Positions 3,086-12,072 of a DNA stretch of 42,349 nucleotides are shown here, one piece after another. Both the position numbers and the translations under genes were made by a program. Below the pieces are notes generated by a model. It made no database searches, had not been told where the DNA came from, and saw only the letters and a program-made list of their open reading frames with translations. Position 1 is the stretch's first letter; every line of letters starts with the position of its first letter. Source of the stretch: a virus; UHGV virus genome UHGV-1359500. One strand, 5' to 3'.

Positions 3086-3631
3086 TTAATTCAGTAAATC
3101 TGCAATGGTAATAGTTAAGTCTTTGTAGATGCCTACGGTAATTGGCTGCGTGAATGTATAAATAGTAGGCGCGGCATCTTCTTCATAGCGATATACAATA
3201 ACTCTTTCCTTTATTGGGTCTACGATCCAATACTCACGGACACCGGTATCAGAATAAAGAGCATTCTTTTTGCCGTAGTCCATTTTGCTGCTGGAAGGAG
3301 ATACAATCTCTATAATCAGATCAGGGGCTCCATTGCATCCTCGATCAGTGAGCTTATTTGGATCACAGATCACGGAAATATCTGGCTCTACCCAGTCTTT
3401 ATCATCGGCGTCAAGGTTGACAGCGAATGGGGCGGGGTATATTTGGCAGTTGCCATGGTTCTTCTTTATATATTCACGGATAGTTCCGGCCAGTTCCATA
3501 ACAAGCTGTTGGTGGATCCGGCTGGGTGGTGCCATGTCATACAGTTTTCCGTCAATGAGTTCGGCTCTTGTACCTTCTGGCAGGTTCCAGTAGTCTTCAG
3601 ATGTATACTGATCGTTTTTTAACAATGGCAT
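3086..3631 (-). CDS. Uma2-family (DUF820) putative restriction-endonuclease-like protein; moron between int and cI
   Basis: The N-terminal region (YTSEDYWNLPEGTRAELIDGKLYDMAPPSRIHQQL) and the size match Uma2 family proteins. Confidence 0.65.
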   Translation of the reverse strand: MPLLKNDQYTSEDYWNLPEGTRAELIDGKLYDMAPPSRIHQQLVMELAGTIREYIKKNHGNCQIYPAPFAVNLDADDKDWVEPDISVICDPNKLTDRGCNGAPDLIIEIVSPSSSKMDYGKKNALYSDTGVREYWIVDPIKERVIVYRYEEDAAPTIYTFTQPITVGIYKDLTITIADLLN

Positions 3632-3998: not shown

Positions 3999-4003
3999 TA
4001 TTC

Positions 4004-4744
4004 TTATTTAACTTTTCCTATTACTTTTCCCATACAGACGATATTATCATCACTATGAATAGCAATATTTTTGAAATCTTTATTATGGGAGATTAATTCT
4101 TTTTCACCTAATTCTTTTATAAAAGCATTTCCGTTTATTACAAATACCCCGATATCACCTAATTGCATTTCGGCATCCTGGTTCACCAGGGCAATATCTT
4201 TATCAGAAAATTCAGGCTCCATACTCTGACCATTAACATCAATGGCAAAGTCGGCAGCGGCATATTCCGAGAGGTTCGGAAGTTCTATTTCATCTTCGGC
4301 TTCATTTCCAAGAATGAATATTCCAGATCCAGCAGAGACACCGGCACGGAAATAAGGAAGAACGATGATCTTGCTGTCTGGACGTGACTGGTATTCTACG
4401 ATAGTCGGAGCTGTAAGTGGGCCGTATTCTTTTATGCGGGCGGTTTCTGTATCTAGTATTAAATTTATGAGTTTTCGTCCGTAATCATCAAGGGCACGAT
4501 ATTTTTTTACCATATTAAATTCAGGAATAGTTATACCGTCATCAGGTACGATAGGTTGAAGAAAATAGGAAGCTCTTACCTTTAACGCACCGCAGATATA
4601 AGAAAGCATATCTAAATCTGGTTTGCTAACACCTTTTTCCCAATTACTAATAGTTGTATTTGTAGTACCCAGTATTTTGGCAAGTTCAGATTGTTTTAAA
4701 CCAGCATCGTTACGAGCTTGTTTTAGTTTTTCACCGAATGTCAT
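4004..4744 (-). CDS. cI: CI-like phage repressor: N-terminal XRE-family HTH plus C-terminal LexA/S24 peptidase autocleavage domain
   Basis: HTH region QSELAKILGTTNTTISNWEKG. The S24 region has the Ser motif (NGQSMEP) and a downstream Lys (FIKELG). The gene is divergent from cro. Confidence 0.9.
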   Translation of the reverse strand: MTFGEKLKQARNDAGLKQSELAKILGTTNTTISNWEKGVSKPDLDMLSYICGALKVRASYFLQPIVPDDGITIPEFNMVKKYRALDDYGRKLINLILDTETARIKEYGPLTAPTIVEYQSRPDSKIIVLPYFRAGVSAGSGIFILGNEAEDEIELPNLSEYAAADFAIDVNGQSMEPEFSDKDIALVNQDAEMQLGDIGVFVINGNAFIKELGEKELISHNKDFKNIAIHSDDNIVCMGKVIGKVK

Positions 4745-4836
4745 GTGTGTACCTCCTTATATGAGAATACTACAATATTATTTGGAAAATGTAAATAGGC
4801 ATTCCAATTATTTTGAAATTTATTTGGAGAAACATA

Positions 4837-4865
4837 TTGACATTCCAAGAAAATAGAATTAATAT
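4837..4865 (+). promoter_or_regulatory. Sigma-70-type promoter for cro (PR-like): TTGACA -35, 17-bp spacer, TAATAT -10
   Basis: Consensus-like hexamers with optimal spacing, upstream of the cro RBS. Confidence 0.6.
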
Positions 4866-4874
4866 AGCAATATA

Positions 4875-4891
4875 TTCCAAGATAATTGGAA
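4875..4891. promoter_or_regulatory. Palindromic operator TTCCAA-N5-TTGGAA between the cro promoter -10 and the RBS; related ATTCCAA half-sites at 4801-4807 and 4842-4848
   Basis: Perfect 6-5-6 inverted repeat, with the half-site reiterated three times in the cI-cro intergenic region. Confidence 0.5.
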
Positions 4892-4899
4892 ACGAGGTG

Positions 4900-5124
4900 A
4901 TGAAATTGAAAGAATGCTTGGAAATAAAAAAATACTTAGAGGAAAATGGAATTTCTCAGGCGCATGTAGGAAAAAGAGCGGGACTTAATCTAGCAAAGCT
5001 TAACCTGGCTTTAAATGGAAATCGAAAGCTTACTTTAGAAGAATATGCTCTGATTTGTGGTGTGCTTGGAGTTAATACAGATTTCTTCTTAAAGCCCAGA
5101 CTGCCAGATAAGGAGGTGAAGTAA
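4900..5124 (+). CDS. cro: Cro-like XRE-family HTH regulator
   Basis: ATG at 4900 with GAGGTG 5 nt upstream. HTH region ISQAHVGKRAGLNLAKLNLALNG. Divergent from cI. Confidence 0.8.
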   Translation: MKLKECLEIKKYLEENGISQAHVGKRAGLNLAKLNLALNGNRKLTLEEYALICGVLGVNTDFFLKPRLPDKEVK

Positions 5125-5424
5125 ATGGGAAAAAAAAAGAACCCACACTTTCCGGACTGGAAAATATGGATTCTCACTTCATTGGTAGTTAGTCAGATTC
5201 TGACGGCTGTTCAGATTCGTCAGGCGAATGAGGAGTTGTGGAAGGCTGTGATTCAGCAGGATGAGGCTCTGGTTCAGTTGGGGCAGGAGTTGGTTCAGCA
5301 GAAACAGGAACTGGTTCAACTTGGTCAGCGTTTGATTGAGCATCAACAGAACGACATTTTGCATAAGACGACATTGAATCAACTTCTGGAGAATTGGAAT
5401 CAGAATCCAACTTGTAGTAAATAG
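5125..5424 (+). CDS. Possible small membrane/coiled-coil protein; overlaps the antisense 370-aa ORF, so may be spurious
   Basis: Very strong SD (AAGGAGGTGA) and an ATG immediately after the cro stop. One predicted TM segment followed by an ELVQ-type heptad repeat. Most of it (5189-5424) is antisense to a longer ORF. Confidence 0.3.
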   Translation: MGKKKNPHFPDWKIWILTSLVVSQILTAVQIRQANEELWKAVIQQDEALVQLGQELVQQKQELVQLGQRLIEHQQNDILHKTTLNQLLENWNQNPTCSK

Positions 5425-6301
5425 CTTCCAATGTTTCAAGACCTTTTAAACAAGCTTCGTACTGTTTTTGCTGAATTTCAATAATCTCATCATTCTGCCG
5501 TATAGTGCGATCATTTTGCTCAATGATGGTTTTGTTTTGTTCAATGATGAGTTCGTTCTGCTGAATAAGTTTGGCATCATTTTCCATTTCTTCCTTGTGG
5601 TATTGCTCCTGCCAAGCGGCGGGAGAAAGGCTCATGATATATGAGGCAATCCAAAGTATTAAGGGAAATAAGATGGATCCAATTAAAAACTGAGTTTGTG
5701 CTGGTGATAATTTAATTATAGCTCCGCGATGGGTTGGTGGGTTTGATTTTTCATCATACTCAAAATCATTAGGAATCAGTTCTGCAGGAACTTCAACATA
5801 TTTTGGGGCTATCCGTATGGCATCGAGCGCTGAAATTAAAGGTTCAAAGCCGGCAGATAACTGAGCGTTAATATCAGCGGTGAACTGAAGCCCAAGTGAT
5901 TTGGTGATGGACGAAAACTCATCTCTGATGGCGACAGTGGCAGAAGATTGAATCAGATTCGCAAACTCTGTACCGTAAGTTTTGGAAAATGAATTGACCA
6001 GATCATGCAGTGGTGATTTAAAAGCATCAGCAATTAAACTGCTGTAAATATTCTGTTGCTGCCTGGCCATTTCGCTAATCGGAGAAGAGAAAAGCGTTCC
6101 GATTTTTTCGGATTGAACGCGAAACTGCTCAAAAGGAAGAACGGATTTCTCAAAGGCAGCAAGTGGCTGTGCAAAAGAGTGAAGAAGAGCCTGTTGCTGT
6201 GTAACAGTATCAATAAGTGGTGATGTGTAAAGCTTTTCTATTTGCTCTAACTGTGCATGAAATTGTTCAAAGGGAAATTTGAAATTGTCTTTTTTATTCA
6301 T
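5189..6301 (-). CDS. Hypothetical 370-aa protein: two tandem ~40-aa FEQF-motif repeats, one TM helix, coiled-coil with IIEQN repeats, Pro/Glu/Ser-rich acidic tail
   Basis: 1.1-kb open frame with GAGGAA 7 nt before the ATG. No family recognised. First gene of the antisense cargo island. Confidence 0.6.
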   Translation of the reverse strand: MNKKDNFKFPFEQFHAQLEQIEKLYTSPLIDTVTQQQALLHSFAQPLAAFEKSVLPFEQFRVQSEKIGTLFSSPISEMARQQQNIYSSLIADAFKSPLHDLVNSFSKTYGTEFANLIQSSATVAIRDEFSSITKSLGLQFTADINAQLSAGFEPLISALDAIRIAPKYVEVPAELIPNDFEYDEKSNPPTHRGAIIKLSPAQTQFLIGSILFPLILWIASYIMSLSPAAWQEQYHKEEMENDAKLIQQNELIIEQNKTIIEQNDRTIRQNDEIIEIQQKQYEACLKGLETLEAIYYKLDSDSNSPEVDSMSSYAKCRSVDAQSNADQVEPVPVSAEPTPAPTEPEPHPAESQPSTTPHSPDESEQPSESD

Positions 6302-6454
6302 GTAAATTCCTCAGCAATGGTTAAAAGTTCCATATCTATTTTACTGAGAATGAATTGGGAAAGCAATATTTTTATTTCGAAAAGTCAATAGCTTGAAATA
6401 GTTGCAGATTCGATGTTAAATCGAAGACCTATTGGAGAAGGAGGTGAGAGAAAA

Positions 6455-6610
6455 ATGAGAGATGCTGTTGCGTTTCTGCTTGGAATTGCCGCAGGAATTG
6501 CAGGGTACAGGGTTTACATTATTAACCTAATACATAGGTATCCCCATACTGCCTGCGATTACTGCAAATTTACGCATGAACAAAAGAAATTATGGTCATT
6601 TAAGAAGTGA
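6455..6610 (+). CDS. Small (51 aa) single-TM peptide
   Basis: AGGAGG 10 nt upstream of the ATG. Hydrophobic core AVAFLLGIAAGIAGYRVYII. Confidence 0.4.
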   Translation: MRDAVAFLLGIAAGIAGYRVYIINLIHRYPHTACDYCKFTHEQKKLWSFKK

Positions 6611-6707
6611 TTATTTTTTCTTCGGTGGCGGACATGTTTGGGACAGATGTGGATTACTTATTAATAGGTGCATCTGGTGTATTAGGTGAGAAAGGAGCGT
6701 GAGAAGA

Positions 6708-6860
6708 ATGGAATTATCGGAATGCATACGTCGGAAGTTAAAAAAGAATTGCCGATACAACGAGAAGTCATATCGGCTTTTGATCAGCGGTTTACTCGGT
6801 TGGAGCATATCATTATTGATGCTTACTATTCGATTACTGCAGTTTTATGTGTTTAATTAA
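6708..6860 (+). CDS. Small (50 aa) basic peptide with C-terminal TM segment
   Basis: AAAGGAG 9 nt upstream. Basic N-terminal region (RRKLKKNCRYNEKSYR) then hydrophobic LLISGLLGWSISLLMLTI. Confidence 0.35.
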   Translation: MELSECIRRKLKKNCRYNEKSYRLLISGLLGWSISLLMLTIRLLQFYVFN

Positions 6861-7224
6861 CCCTTTTAGCAAGATCACCAATTTGAGGATTATCGAAAGG
6901 ACGCTGGTTTTCATTGGAATCCGTTGTCTCAATGTATTCTGAGAAAGGAATCATTGGATTACGGCGAATGGTTTTGATAGGAGACTTGTCATAAATACAT
7001 GACTCAATGGTACTGATTTTAGGTTGTACATGAGTGATTATCCCAGTCCCTTTAACAAGTTCAAGGAAACCTAAGGATTCTTTTGTGTCAGGATCAAAGA
7101 TTTCTTCATTGCTTACTTCATAAATAAGATATTTTTGGCCTTCTGTGGCACCGTCATCAGATCCAATGTTAAGAACAAGTTTGTAATCATCAATTACATT
7201 CACAACTTTAATGGTCGTTTTCAT
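6853..7224 (-). CDS. Hypothetical 123-aa soluble protein; second gene of a two-gene antisense operon
   Basis: Overlaps the upstream gene by 17 nt (translational coupling). No family recognised; N-terminal beta-rich region VVNVIDDYKLVLNIGSDDG...GQKYLIYEV. Confidence 0.65.
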   Translation of the reverse strand: MKTTIKVVNVIDDYKLVLNIGSDDGATEGQKYLIYEVSNEEIFDPDTKESLGFLELVKGTGIITHVQPKISTIESCIYDKSPIKTIRRNPMIPFSEYIETTDSNENQRPFDNPQIGDLAKRVN

Positions 7225-7723
7225 AATTTACCTCCAGGTTTAAATTCGTTATGGTTTCAGCTGTTTCGATAGTTATAGTGGGTTTAATTATTATGGAACT
7301 CAAATGATTGGAAATGAGAGAAAAGTGATCCTCTTTCTTTTCATCGTTTGAGAATAAGATGATTTGGGCGAGGCCATTGTTGGTAATAGTCTCGACATAT
7401 CCATAAGTTATTAGTTCCTCATATCCATCAATATTCTCGAAAAATGAAACAACTGAATGATGACTTAAAAATGGACACGGTTTACAGAGGCAACGATTAT
7501 TAGTACATTTAACGATTTCAATAGTGTATGTAAGAGCAACTTGCCGCAAATCGTTATACAGTTTGTAGGAAAGCCAGGCGAAGAGAAAGGCTAGAAAAAC
7601 CACAATGATAAATGCAATATATGGAACACTATCGTGAGGGTTGAAGTAATACATTGCAAAGGCTGGAAGTAATGCTAAAGCAAAAGAAACATAATTGCTC
7701 CAGTCACAAAAATATTTTTTCAT
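7208..7723 (-). CDS. Hypothetical membrane protein (2 predicted TM helices) with Cys cluster C-x4-C-x-C-x2-C
   Basis: Start taken at the internal ATG (7723) preceded by GGTGGTGA. The longer upstream extension to 7882 lacks an RBS and overlaps a repeat. Confidence 0.6.
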   Translation of the reverse strand: MKKYFCDWSNYVSFALALLPAFAMYYFNPHDSVPYIAFIIVVFLAFLFAWLSYKLYNDLRQVALTYTIEIVKCTNNRCLCKPCPFLSHHSVVSFFENIDGYEELITYGYVETITNNGLAQIILFSNDEKKEDHFSLISNHLSSIIIKPTITIETAETITNLNLEVNYENDH

Positions 7724-7807
7724 GAAATCACCACCGTTTCTTATTGGTAAGTGTAAAAAGTATAACATACATAAAACAAAAATACCAGTGTATGGGATAG
7801 ATGGGGG

Positions 7808-7837
7808 TACCCATTGAGAAGCTGTTGGAGTAGGAGG
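7808..7837. repeat. 30-bp direct repeat copy 1 (TACCCATTGAGAAGCTGTTGGAGTAGGAGG)
   Basis: 30/30 identical to 8365-8394. Contains an orphan SD-like GGAGG. Confidence 0.7.
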
Positions 7838-7899
7838 CGAGGAAAACGAATAGAACAAATGGTGTAAAAGAACAAATTTCAAATCAAAAGTTGATTCAG

Positions 7900-7945
7900 A
7901 TATCTAATAAAATAGGTGACCTGGTTATTAGCAGCGGGCTGTCAT
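7900..7945 (-). terminator. Rho-independent terminator for the zinc-ribbon gene (stem CCTGGTTAT/ATAACCAGG, then a T-run on the minus strand)
   Basis: 9-bp perfect stem followed on the minus strand by CTATTTTATT. Confidence 0.5.
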
Positions 7946-8000
7946 ATAACCAGGCGAAAAAAGTTTTTGATATTACTTTAGAAGCATTAAATGATGTTCC

Positions 8001-8264
8001 CTATTCTTTAAGTCCTTGTATCGATGAATAGTGTTGTACTTCAAAAGAAAAACCTGTTTGCGGATAAATGAGTTCATCATCGTCGGAATAGCTTTCTGGG
8101 ACAAGACTAAGTTCTCTTATTCCGTTTAATATATGTGCAGAATATTCGGGTTTAACTTCGGAAGTGCAATTAGGACAAATAATTTTAGTGCAATTGATTG
8201 ATTCAGGTCGAAGTTCAAATTTGCACATGCACTTATGACATTTTATTTTGATTTTGAAATCCAT
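8001..8264 (-). CDS. Small zinc-ribbon protein (CxxC...CxxC)
   Basis: Start at the internal ATG (8264) with AGGAAGGAG upstream. Cys motif KCHKCMC...CPNC. Confidence 0.6.
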   Translation of the reverse strand: MDFKIKIKCHKCMCKFELRPESINCTKIICPNCTSEVKPEYSAHILNGIRELSLVPESYSDDDELIYPQTGFSFEVQHYSSIQGLKE

Positions 8265-8364
8265 GGGTAATTTCTCCTTCCTTTTGTACTCGGCGCTGCA
8301 ACGCTTGTATGGAAAGTATATCACTAGGGAGATAAGGAAAACAAGTATATTAACGGTTCTCATT

Positions 8365-8394
8365 TACCCATTGAGAAGCTGTTGGAGTAGGAGG
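8365..8394. repeat. 30-bp direct repeat copy 2; supplies the SD for the downstream Xis-like gene
   Basis: Exact copy of 7808-7837. Confidence 0.7.
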
Positions 8395-8401
8395 TGTTTA
8401 C

Positions 8402-8608
8402 ATGGAAAAACGATATCTTTCACCAGAAGATGCAGCTCCGTTTCTGGGACTGTCGGCAGCGGCCGTAAGAAAGTACATGCGTAATGGAAGCATGGATCTG
8501 GGAATGGTTTTAAGTCCTCAAAAGACGGGGACTAAGACCTGGCGGTACAAGATCTATCCGGAGAAGTTAAAGCAGATTACCGGATCCAGTGTGCCAGGAT
8601 ATGAATAG
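8402..8608 (+). CDS. Excisionase-like / MerR-type HTH DNA-binding protein
   Basis: HTH region LSPEDAAPFLGLSAAAVRKYMRNG. First gene of the plus-strand early operon. Confidence 0.55.
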   Translation: MEKRYLSPEDAAPFLGLSAAAVRKYMRNGSMDLGMVLSPQKTGTKTWRYKIYPEKLKQITGSSVPGYE

Positions 8609-8631
8609 AGCTTGGAAAGGAGAGAGAAGTA

Positions 8632-8817
8632 ATGGCAAAGATCAAGAACTATGACGGCCAGACCGGCATGGAGCTGTCCTATGTGGCAGTACAGGCAACC
8701 AGACCTAAGAAGAAAGCTGTGGACTGGGTAGGTATCACAGAGACATTTATAGCCGGTGGCATGTGGGTGATAGTCTTCATGATGCTTGGAGCTGCGCTTG
8801 CGGTCCAGGTGCTGTGA
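8632..8817 (+). CDS. Small membrane protein (61 aa)
   Basis: C-terminal TM segment; RBS GGAGAG. Confidence 0.45.
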   Translation: MAKIKNYDGQTGMELSYVAVQATRPKKKAVDWVGITETFIAGGMWVIVFMMLGAALAVQVL

Positions 8818-9026
8818 TGGCTGTGCGGAATGACCAGTGCGGTACCTGCATAAAGAAGAACCGGTGTATGGAGAGAAGCCGCTTACAGGCATGCAGAGGC
8901 TACATAAAAAAGGACCCAGGCAGCGGCAACTGCGGAAGGTCCGGTAACAAAAAAATTGTACACCCTCATTATACGGAGGGAGAAGGAGAAATGCAAGATG
9001 GTAAAAGCGAAGTTTGTAGTAGATAA
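8817..9026 (+). CDS. Small Cys-rich protein (69 aa)
   Basis: ATGA start/stop overlap with the upstream gene. Contains a CGTC motif among other cysteines. Confidence 0.4.
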   Translation: MAVRNDQCGTCIKKNRCMERSRLQACRGYIKKDPGSGNCGRSGNKKIVHPHYTEGEGEMQDGKSEVCSR

Positions 9027-9300
9027 CAGGGAAGCAGGAGAGACCGAGGACTGTGGTCTGATTGTAGCGATCGGTTTGGGAGAGATGAAAGAAGAGAACC
9101 AGTTTCAGTTAGCCGTAGTCGGCGGTAAAGGGTTAAGGGGTTCTATGATGGTACAAGGCTTAGCAGATGGCATAGCAGAAGCAATCAGCCGCATGACTGA
9201 TAATGATATGCAGGCAATCGCAATGCTGACAGCATTTATAGAAGAGACCGAGAGACGCTGCAAGAAAAAGATGTTGGAAAGGCTTACGAATGGTAACTAA
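8998..9300 (+). CDS. Hypothetical early protein (~100 aa)
   Basis: ATG at 8998 with GGAGAAGGAGAAA upstream. Confidence 0.5.
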   Translation: MVKAKFVVDNREAGETEDCGLIVAIGLGEMKEENQFQLAVVGGKGLRGSMMVQGLADGIAEAISRMTDNDMQAIAMLTAFIEETERRCKKKMLERLTNGN

Positions 9301-11649: not shown

Positions 11650-12072
11650 ATGGCGATAACATTTGACAGCATTGGAAATGGAGACCTGGCAGAAAAATTC
11701 AAGATTGCCCTGCAGCAGGTAGGGAAAAATATCATGAATCCCAACATGGATCCGGATGCAGCCAGAGAGATAACGGTCAATATCAAGTTTAAACCGGTAG
11801 GCCAGGGAACTCTTAACATAGACTACAATGTTAAACCGAAACTGGCCGGATTTAAAAAGGCAAAAACCGTGTTCCTGGTTGGACAGGATGTCCGAACAGG
11901 GCGTGTTGATATGTCCGAACCGGGAAGCAGACTTCCCCAGGTTGCTCCGGTACAGGAGATCCCACCGGCTGCATACGAGGATGTGACTGCAGGAAGAAGC
12001 GTGGATCCGGAAACCGGTGAGATATTTGAAGAGAAAAAAGGCCCTATTGATTTAAGAAGGATGCAGGCATGA
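11650..12072 (+). CDS. Hypothetical phage protein
   Basis: ORF with GGAGGTGA upstream. Confidence 0.5.
   Translation: MAITFDSIGNGDLAEKFKIALQQVGKNIMNPNMDPDAAREITVNIKFKPVGQGTLNIDYNVKPKLAGFKKAKTVFLVGQDVRTGRVDMSEPGSRLPQVAPVQEIPPAAYEDVTAGRSVDPETGEIFEEKKGPIDLRRMQA

Follow-up and report, generated by a model that had tools for sequence, protein, structure and literature searches.

Prophage moron and defence hotspots, such as those of P2/P4 and the sie/abi loci of lactococcal and streptococcal phages, hold variable, low-GC, self-contained genes that lie in lysogeny orientation at a fixed position. A locus of this kind was found between the cro and xis genes of UHGV virus genome UHGV-1359500, a temperate phage or prophage with a human-gut Clostridium host (UMGS615). 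The whole 42,349-nt stretch is referred to here as the window, and the locus occupies its positions 5125 to 8395. The proteins designated E, C, B and A are encoded on its minus strand, together with two short plus-strand open reading frames (ORFs), D1 and D2 (Table 1). Like the known hotspots, the locus has empty sites and alternative cargo in close relatives, among the latter a TIR-like effector and the pair of ThsB-TIR with SLATT. It is unlike them in its position at the cro/xis junction, in the stacking of cassettes at a retained cro 3′ end with serial relics, and in that no cargo protein belongs to a described defence family. Prophage cargo and defence hotspots are an ordinary kind of locus; here the recombination footprint is unusually clear. 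The best overall explanation, to which a probability of about one in two is assigned, is a stacked cargo hotspot in which B and C form an abortive-infection-type defence module.

For the B+C pair, the closest described systems are lambda RexAB and Kiwa KwaAB, in which a small membrane protein is likewise encoded with a soluble partner in a single prophage-borne operon, and CBASS and Pycsar with their two-transmembrane (2-TM) or TIR effectors, which B-type proteins recall in that 2-TM and TIR-like parts apparently alternate in one lineage. No sequence match linked B or C to the RexA/B, KwaA/B or CBASS/Pycsar effector models of PADLOC, and the B+C loci annotated showed no cyclase, CD-NTase operon or nucleotide-sensing domain. 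The predicted barrels of B and C have a FlgT/HAS-type fold, and none of the defence models searched here matched it. In flagella and pili, FlgT and TsaP serve as periplasmic ring proteins. Unlike them, C is a stand-alone protein of 123 aa, without a signal peptide and with an extra invariant DPDTxESLG hairpin, and unlike the crown barrels of F1/V1/FliI and HerA it has no ATPase domain attached.

The original prediction, made from the sequence alone, had proposed a variable, low-GC cargo hotspot beside cro, and comparison with related phages bears this out. None of A, B, C, D1, D2 and E was present in 27 IMG/VR contigs carrying a 97 to 100% identical xis gene; some same-xis contigs have alternative minus-strand cargo in the cro/xis slot, and in others cro abuts xis. 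In L103 (2441-3136, minus strand) and L107 (1964-2659, minus strand; L numbers denote the loci compared), the protein encoded between cro and xis is 231 aa long and matched a PADLOC TIR effector model (1e−15). A weak match of this protein to nucleoside 2-deoxyribosyltransferase was also seen. The GC fraction is 0.32 to 0.42 over positions 4500 to 8500, compared with 0.45 to 0.50 in the early operon to the right, and the base composition of the cargo thus differs from that of the phage backbone, as in moron loci. The presence/absence comparison showed the block to be variable, not a core unit shared by all relatives.

Parts of the block are also exchanged separately. In L006, L009 and L010, window positions 4460 to 6617 (the N-terminal half of CI, cro95, E and D1) are replaced by a cro72/CI252 immunity type, with D2, C, B and A remaining; L130 and L131 are further loci with B+C but without E. 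In L007, L008 and L015, a DUF6173 gene takes the place of A at 7834 to 8364, with B and C remaining, and breakpoint mapping placed this swap exactly between the two copies of a 30-bp direct repeat. These comparisons indicate at least three stacked cassettes, E (with D1, and linked to cro95), B+C, and A, that are exchanged independently; each of the three has the orientation of the repressor and integrase genes. The block had been put forward as one module, a view contradicted by the independent assortment of E, B+C and A, and positions 5125 to 8395 are very probably a composite recombinational cargo hotspot at the cro/xis junction. A single multi-gene system spanning the whole 3.2 kb and made up of E, the small peptides, B+C and A is highly improbable: the long ORFs are co-oriented and are grouped in the window as in most contigs that carry identical proteins, but B+C occurs without E or with DUF6173 in place of A, no third gene is conserved beside B+C across the 80 genomic and 19 viral loci described below, and each part comes with promoter-like and terminator-like elements and a relic boundary of its own.

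The 30-bp direct repeat is exact, a match far beyond what chance would give in 4 kb. It had been described as flanking the island; it brackets the A cassette only and corresponds to the 3′ end of a cro gene joined to the ribosome-binding site (RBS) of xis. At the empty sites of L119 and L121, a 63-aa cro abuts xis, and the sequence of the junction is that of the repeat in the window: ...GGAG-TACCCATTGAGAAGCTGTTGGAGTAG-GAGGTGTTTACATG encodes ...GVPIEKLLE and a stop codon, followed by the xis RBS. Because the same 30 bp in L119 and L121 are the last cro codons plus the xis RBS, both repeat copies are cro 3′-end relics left by cassette addition at the cro/xis junction. A target-site duplication, an att site and a transposon end were considered for the repeat and rejected on this identification. 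The tract at 6618 to 6722 is likewise a relic of a cro 3′ end; it is 92 to 94% identical to the cro72 3′ end in L007 and L103, and the homology of L006 begins at 6618. On the opposite side of the locus, homology with the window resumes exactly at 8365 in L119, L123, L124 and L008.

Relatives with different cargo regain homology with the window at 8275, 8303, 8328 or 8365, and it follows that the putative divergent promoter and leader (8275-8364) are kept and that the minus-strand gene behind them varies. In relatives, this gene encodes a 212-aa membrane protein, a 219-aa, 158-aa or 154-aa protein, or an 83-aa zinc-ribbon protein. The history of the locus would start from an ancestral state in which cro was directly followed by xis. 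Successive recombination at the conserved cro 3′ end and xis RBS would have stacked three independent cassettes, each addition leaving a cro 3′ relic (6618-6722, 7808-7837 and 8365-8394), and the slot holding A would keep its promoter as the gene behind it is swapped. Judged by orientation alone, the cargo could be expressed in the lysogen.

The B and C genes of the window overlap by 17 nt, with GGAGG 8 nt 5′ of the C ATG. C homologs form 47 clusters, and three homologs carry PF16538 (FlgT_C). A scan of GTDB using one genome per species identified at least 311 C loci, so that C relatives are present in at least 311 species genomes from more than 10 phyla plus archaea. Represented are the Firmicutes, Cyanobacteria, Melainabacteria, Alpha-, Beta- and Gammaproteobacteria, Desulfobacterota, Myxococcota, Planctomycetota, Bacteroidota, Campylobacterota and Cloacimonadota, together with the archaeal Methanotrichaceae and Methanosarcinales. 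Among the best 80 of the at least 311 genomic C loci, a B homolog, confirmed by hidden Markov model (HMM), lies immediately upstream on the same strand in 52. The upstream homologs are 160 to 200 aa long with two N-terminal transmembrane (TM) segments, and the distance from B to C runs from an overlap of ∼50 nt to a gap of ∼200 nt, mostly within ∼25 nt. At several further C loci, the partner is a 2-TM protein that has diverged beyond the reach of the B HMM. All 19 IMG/VR contigs with a C relative (32 to 100% identity) have B upstream. Homologs of B formed 8 clusters in a word-indexed search and 39 in a profile search, none with a Pfam domain; the query of concatenated B and C gave B relatives and one C-like protein (P0008), and the C relatives came from a separate search with C. 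B+C is very probably a genuine conserved two-gene system, and a literature search found no description of the pair.

A compact, overlapping two-gene operon that is mobile, patchily distributed by horizontal spread, and found near integrases, restriction-modification (R-M) systems and other toxin-antitoxin (TA) antidotes is also reminiscent of type II TA loci. B+C could on this basis be an addiction pair, with B as a membrane toxin and C as its neutraliser, that stabilises a prophage or an R-M operon and has no direct anti-phage role. The common type II order places the antitoxin first, whereas the putative toxin B, a membrane protein, always comes first here; moreover, the pair has no DNA-binding antitoxin domain for autoregulation and matched no toxin or antitoxin family. 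An addiction pair in this sense is quite unlikely, and since many TA systems themselves act as abortive-infection defences, the proposal overlaps with the preferred one.

The structural model of C is confident (predicted local distance difference test [pLDDT], 88.8) and gives a beta-barrel closest to those of MreC and TsaP; the C profile also matches TsaP by sequence (8.9e−6). The barrel has the same fold in B and C, whose profiles are weakly similar in register. Both structural and profile similarity thus connect the pair with the FlgT_C/TsaP-type beta-barrel (PF16538), and the barrels of B and C are predicted to be of the FlgT/TsaP/F1-crown/HerA-HAS type, that is, the FlgT_C/TsaP/HAS-barrel fold. 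A Foldseek search of the B model against BFVD returned nothing significant. With regard to the functional family of FlgT and TsaP, C has no export signal, its N-terminus is not hydrophobic, and its neighbours were phage, R-M or housekeeping genes and in no case flagellar or pilus genes. In alignments of C, the hairpin motif DPDTxESLGxLE is invariant and a C-terminal strand, PF-NP--GDLAK, is conserved. Both termini of B, and with them its barrel, are predicted to be cytoplasmic by the positive-inside rule, because KK occurs at the N-terminus, K/R follows the second TM helix, and the 7-residue loop is acidic. Only ∼7 residues of B are exposed on the outer side of the membrane. Conserved positions of B include E102 and G108. 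B had been predicted to be a 2-TM Cys-cluster protein; the two TM helices stand, and the Cys cluster is confined to the closest Clostridia relatives. A family-wide metal site formed by this cluster was rejected on its absence beyond them.

Several B+C loci are embedded among R-M and defence genes. In L042 (Gastranaerophilales), MTase_III (2.9e−190), B, C, REase_III (5.5e−175) and an SpbK-like TIR gene follow one another with gaps of 0 to 3 nt, and the same Mod-B-C-Res order was identified in L050 by homology to L042. The mod-B-C-res nesting spans 2985-8871 in L042 and 2840-7958 in L050, two Gastranaerophilales/Melainabacteria genomes. The order in L049 (Christensenellaceae) is PD-T7-3 (6.7e−119), a methyltransferase (MTase), B, C, PDC-S31/DUF2971 and bSEFIR (2.4e−75); in L058, AbiJ_NTD4/DUF7014 is followed by an MTase, B and C; and in L070 a type I MTase (8.1e−136) adjoins the pair. 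The pooled set of B+C neighbours, which gives no locus for individual matches, further contains a type I specificity subunit, a type IIG enzyme (4.3e−190), RmrA, AbiD, PDC-M38A/B and mad2/mad3. The type IIG match probably comes from L081 (Cloacimonadota), where a 938-aa protein is encoded immediately upstream of B+C. In L081 (3963-4958), the B-type barrel is fused to a CAP12/Pycsar-TIR-like N-terminal domain that replaces the 2-TM hairpin, and in L098 (77-514 of a Methanosarcinales metagenome-assembled genome, truncated by the contig end) it is likewise fused to an N-terminal domain other than 2-TM. This domain exchange suggests an effector swap.

In the unrelated serine-integrase phages L139, L142 and L143, B, C, a helix-turn-helix (HTH) repressor, Abi_2 (in L139) and the integrase are co-oriented. 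The Abi_2 (AbiD-like) gene of L139 (7162-8121; 8.9e−47) lies between the repressor and the serine integrase, with B+C directly upstream of the repressor. A position beside immunity genes, repressor and integrase is classical for superinfection-exclusion (sie) genes, and entry-blocking inner-membrane lysogen proteins include T4 Imm, P22 SieA, HK97 gp15 and lactococcal Sie2009. Consistent with such a role, B and E are membrane proteins in lysogeny orientation beside immunity genes, and B+C adjoins repressor and integrase in unrelated phages as sie genes do; the pair, perhaps with E, could then block entry of the incoming genome without killing the cell. However, the small outer exposure of B, the frequency of B+C outside prophages, in R-M operons and in archaea, and the replacement of the TM part by a TIR-like enzymatic domain in one lineage, which is a better fit to an effector, make exclusion an unlikely function. 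In addition, no homology was detected to the described Sie families (Sie2009, Ltp, SieA and Imm), and PHROG, Pfam and PADLOC searches were uninformative for B, C and E.

Under the abortive-infection-type explanation, B+C would be the functional core of the block. The pair is a candidate anti-phage system, with the odds put a little short of even, because it is found in many phyla and in archaea, often inside R-M operons and defence islands. B would be the effector, a 2-TM membrane hairpin tethered to a cytoplasmic beta-barrel, and C would be its cytoplasmic barrel partner that, with the invariant DPDTxESLG hairpin, senses or gates. The two barrels would co-assemble under the membrane, as the same fold does in F1 crowns, HerA, and the FlgT and TsaP rings. 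A phage cue would then free the TM hairpins of B and the membrane would be permeabilised. Gene content, cassette borders, variation among relatives, the folds, conservation of the operon and its genomic contexts are established by the comparisons and models; we infer expression in the lysogen, the interaction of B with C, ring formation, the trigger, membrane damage and any protective effect. More tentatively still, B+C may found a phylogenetically broad anti-phage system of bacteria and archaea, characterised by paralogous barrels, a swappable effector, gated assembly and service as a second line nested in R-M operons. Infection could in that case lead to membrane permeabilisation, or to NAD-type toxicity in the TIR-like variants, and temperate phages would carry the system in their lysogeny modules.

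A number of observations weigh against a conserved defence module of this design. No B was detectable by HMM at 28 of the 80 C loci, and neither B nor C matched a PADLOC, Pfam or NCBIfam model at threshold. The model of B is of moderate confidence (pLDDT, 73; predicted template modelling score, 0.48), and the TIR-like match of L081 is below the Pfam threshold (20.3 versus 24.7 bits; E value, 5.9e−4). The promoters of the cargo were read by eye, and the consensus scan flagged none (the −35 of B+C is weak). Many B+C loci lie among housekeeping genes, such as argH/hemD in Campylobacter, dnaE/SprT in Veillonella and cobN in cyanobacteria, and the association with defence islands is partial, consisting of individual cases and not of a rate against background. 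Housekeeping neighbours favour a reading of the cassettes as lysogenic-conversion or phage-regulatory genes with no part in conflict between phages, for instance with envelope or stress functions of benefit to the host or as antisense-encoded regulators of early transcription. The barrel fold is a generic one that serves in the machines of flagella, pili and cell shape, E and A lack informative relatives, and insertions could affect early-gene timing since 3.3 kb of convergent genes must be crossed. On the other side are the repeated and tight embedding of B+C in type III R-M operons and defence islands, the TIR-effector-like genes among the alternative cargo of the same slot and, with respect to phage regulation, the complete absence of the pair from many otherwise near-identical phages. 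A conversion or regulatory function is, on this evidence, unlikely.

The features of the locus are given in Table 1. The ORFs, both terminator-like hairpins, the exact 30-bp repeat and the flanking genes lie where the original prediction had placed them. It had also recognised no family for the cargo ORFs, in agreement with Pfam, NCBIfam and PADLOC profile searches, in which E, D1, D2, C, B and A all remained below threshold. With the HMMs of PADLOC-DB v2.0.0 (2023), E, C, A and D1 had no match and B matched just Cmr5 (E value, 0.022). PHROG matches were limited to families of unknown function (C, phrog_27728, 1.5e−8; A, phrog_15404, 9.5e−5). An Rfam search of the region identified no family, and megablast of positions 4000 to 9300 against INPHARED phages gave no match.

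Table 1. Features of the cro/xis cargo locus and flanking genes in the window
Feature	Position	Strand	Basis and remarks
Tyrosine integrase	1726-2871	−	
Uma2-family nuclease	3086-3631	−	Between integrase and CI
CI-like repressor, HTH + S24	4004-4744	−	
cro95, cro-type HTH gene; left anchor of hotspot	4837-5124	+	HTH_3, HTH_26 matches
Terminator-like hairpin after E	5137-5175	−	Consensus scan; 17-pair stem, T8 tail; 14 nt past E stop
E, 370 aa, single-pass membrane protein	5189-6301	−	ORF
D1, 51-aa putative TM peptide	6455-6610	+	ORF; strong RBS GGAGGTGAG read from sequence
Relic of cro72-type gene 3′ end; left boundary of B+C cassette	6618-6722	+	Comparison
D2, 50-aa ORF, hydrophobic C-terminus	6708-6860	+	Convergent with C, 8-nt overlap
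Terminator-like hairpin after C	6751-6777	−	Consensus scan; 11-pair stem, 5 GC pairs; 76 nt past C stop
C, 123 aa, soluble, predicted beta-barrel protein	6853-7224	−	
B, 171 aa from internal ATG; two N-terminal TM helices, predicted C-terminal beta-barrel	7208-7723	−	
Putative B+C promoter, extended −10 TGtTATACT	7759-7767	−	Read by eye; 36 nt upstream of B ATG
30-bp repeat copy 1; junction of B+C and A cassettes	7808-7837	+	...GVPIEKLLE-stop plus GGAGG
A, 87-aa zinc-ribbon protein, CxxC-x14-CxxC	8001-8264	−	ORF; RBS GGAAGGAG
Putative conserved promoter and leader of cargo slot by xis	8275-8364	−	TTGTTT-18-TGaTATACT, −10 at 8320-8315; by eye
30-bp repeat copy 2, cro 3′ relic plus RBS of xis-like gene; conserved early operon start	8365-8394	+	
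Xis-like HTH_17 gene; right anchor of hotspot	8402-8608	+	

D2 was called by metagenome gene callers and is present in every phage here that carries B+C, and it includes the B+C terminator hairpin. No counterpart of D2 was found next to B+C pairs elsewhere, and it is doubtful as a gene.

In E, an N-terminal repeat-containing soluble domain of ∼180 to 200 aa is followed by a single TM helix, a coiled coil and a tail that is acidic and rich in Ser, Pro and Glu; the charge distribution suggests a topology with the N-terminus in and the C-terminus out. Its family consists of 33 clusters (50% identity) among 1.84 billion representatives, and the full-length members (∼24 of the 33) share the architecture of TM helix plus acidic tail, the tail ending in ...SESD. 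A sequence search of the PDB with E found nothing informative. E is convergent with cro95, with which it shares a terminator, and is missing from phages of the cro72 immunity type; L007 has a 48% identical variant of E. D1 accompanies E and is absent wherever E is absent, and cro95, E and D1 move together as one exchangeable block, to which D1, a putative gene, belongs. As a guess, E probably acts in exclusion, as a protein of the surface or membrane; no evidence ties either E or the zinc-ribbon protein A to defence.

A 99-aa ORF (5125-5424, plus strand) runs antisense to the acidic tail of E. Beginning immediately behind the cro stop codon and equipped with a strong RBS (GGAGGTGA), it encodes a TM segment and a Leu/Gln coiled coil, and it is intact in L007. 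This ORF was considered as the real gene in place of the E tail and was judged a shadow ORF because the tail and terminal motif of E are conserved at the protein level in diverged members and a terminator lies past the E stop; as a counterpoint, the 5125-5424 region is nearly identical in L007. A patch of ∼245 bp at 5100 to 5345 (cro 3′ end, terminator and E tail) is ∼100% identical to positions 11877 to 12150 of L007, compared with ∼80% identity in the flanking cro coding sequence and 48% between the whole E proteins. This patch points to a tract of recent recombination or to both strands being strongly constrained.

A had a weak Zn_ribbon_20 match and no significant relative of known function, a PDB sequence search being uninformative as well. 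Homology between A and the zinc-ribbon protein of L103 was unsupported (BLASTP E value, 0.4). A is probably a small regulator, although this is a guess. The A cassette also contains a 46-aa ORF with a TTG start (7891-8031, plus strand) that partially overlaps the 3′ end of A on the opposite strand. A proposed identity as an HU/IHF-like fragment found no support, the ORF having no convincing RBS or PDB relatives, and it is probably non-coding.

To the right of the locus, the HTH_17 match of the Xis-like gene is below threshold (E value, 0.0012; 19.5 bits versus a cut-off of 27 bits); the gene matches phrog_6058 at 2.4e−7 and excisionase PHROGs at weak E values. It is followed on the plus strand by YqaJ, DUF1351, RecT and structural genes. 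No plus-strand promoter just 5′ of xis was flagged by the consensus scan, and from the cro promoter xis is reached only across 3.3 kb of convergent cargo and the possibly bidirectional hairpin at 6751 to 6777. A tRNA-Lys gene (anticodon UUU) lies within the phage genome at 17567 to 17642 on the plus strand.

To the left, the Uma2 nuclease matches PADLOC candidate defence family PDC-S03 (E value, 4.1e−47) and phrog_16228 (6.8e−68). With this gene the integrase side has a second cargo zone, which in relatives is occupied by a DUF4160 gene or by ThsB-TIR paired with SLATT. In L113 (1421-1840, minus strand) and L116 (1546-1998, minus strand), the ThsB-type TIR (PF08937, 1.5e−16) and a SLATT/DUF4231 2-TM protein are encoded between the integrase and Uma2 genes; they lie close together with a 60-aa ORF on the opposite strand between them. 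L104, L105 and L106 (for example, L106 132-890, minus strand) encode a 252-aa protein in which an N-terminal PemK/MazF-like toxin domain (1.5e−9) is fused to a coiled coil, and which adjoins an ImmA/IrrE-HTH immunity pair on the integrase side.

The locus of the uncultured Clostridium sp. genome UMGS615 (L023), identified in the GTDB scan, is 100% identical to that of the window. The exact C protein was recorded in 2542 index blocks of an assembly collection and the exact E protein in 685; the contigs inspected for them were metagenome assemblies, at least some labelled human gut.

The locus shows how cargo is gathered and reshuffled in temperate phages of gut Firmicutes, through recombination at a retained cro 3′ end and serial relics, and the promoter-conserved slot beside xis could be mined for more candidate defence genes. 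If B+C protects against phages, it would be a compact two-gene system built on a fold outside the defence models searched here, with an unusually wide host range that extends from gut Clostridia to cyanobacteria, proteobacteria and methanogens. The nesting of the pair between type III mod and res genes would, if this is true, make a case for studying co-regulated layers of defence.

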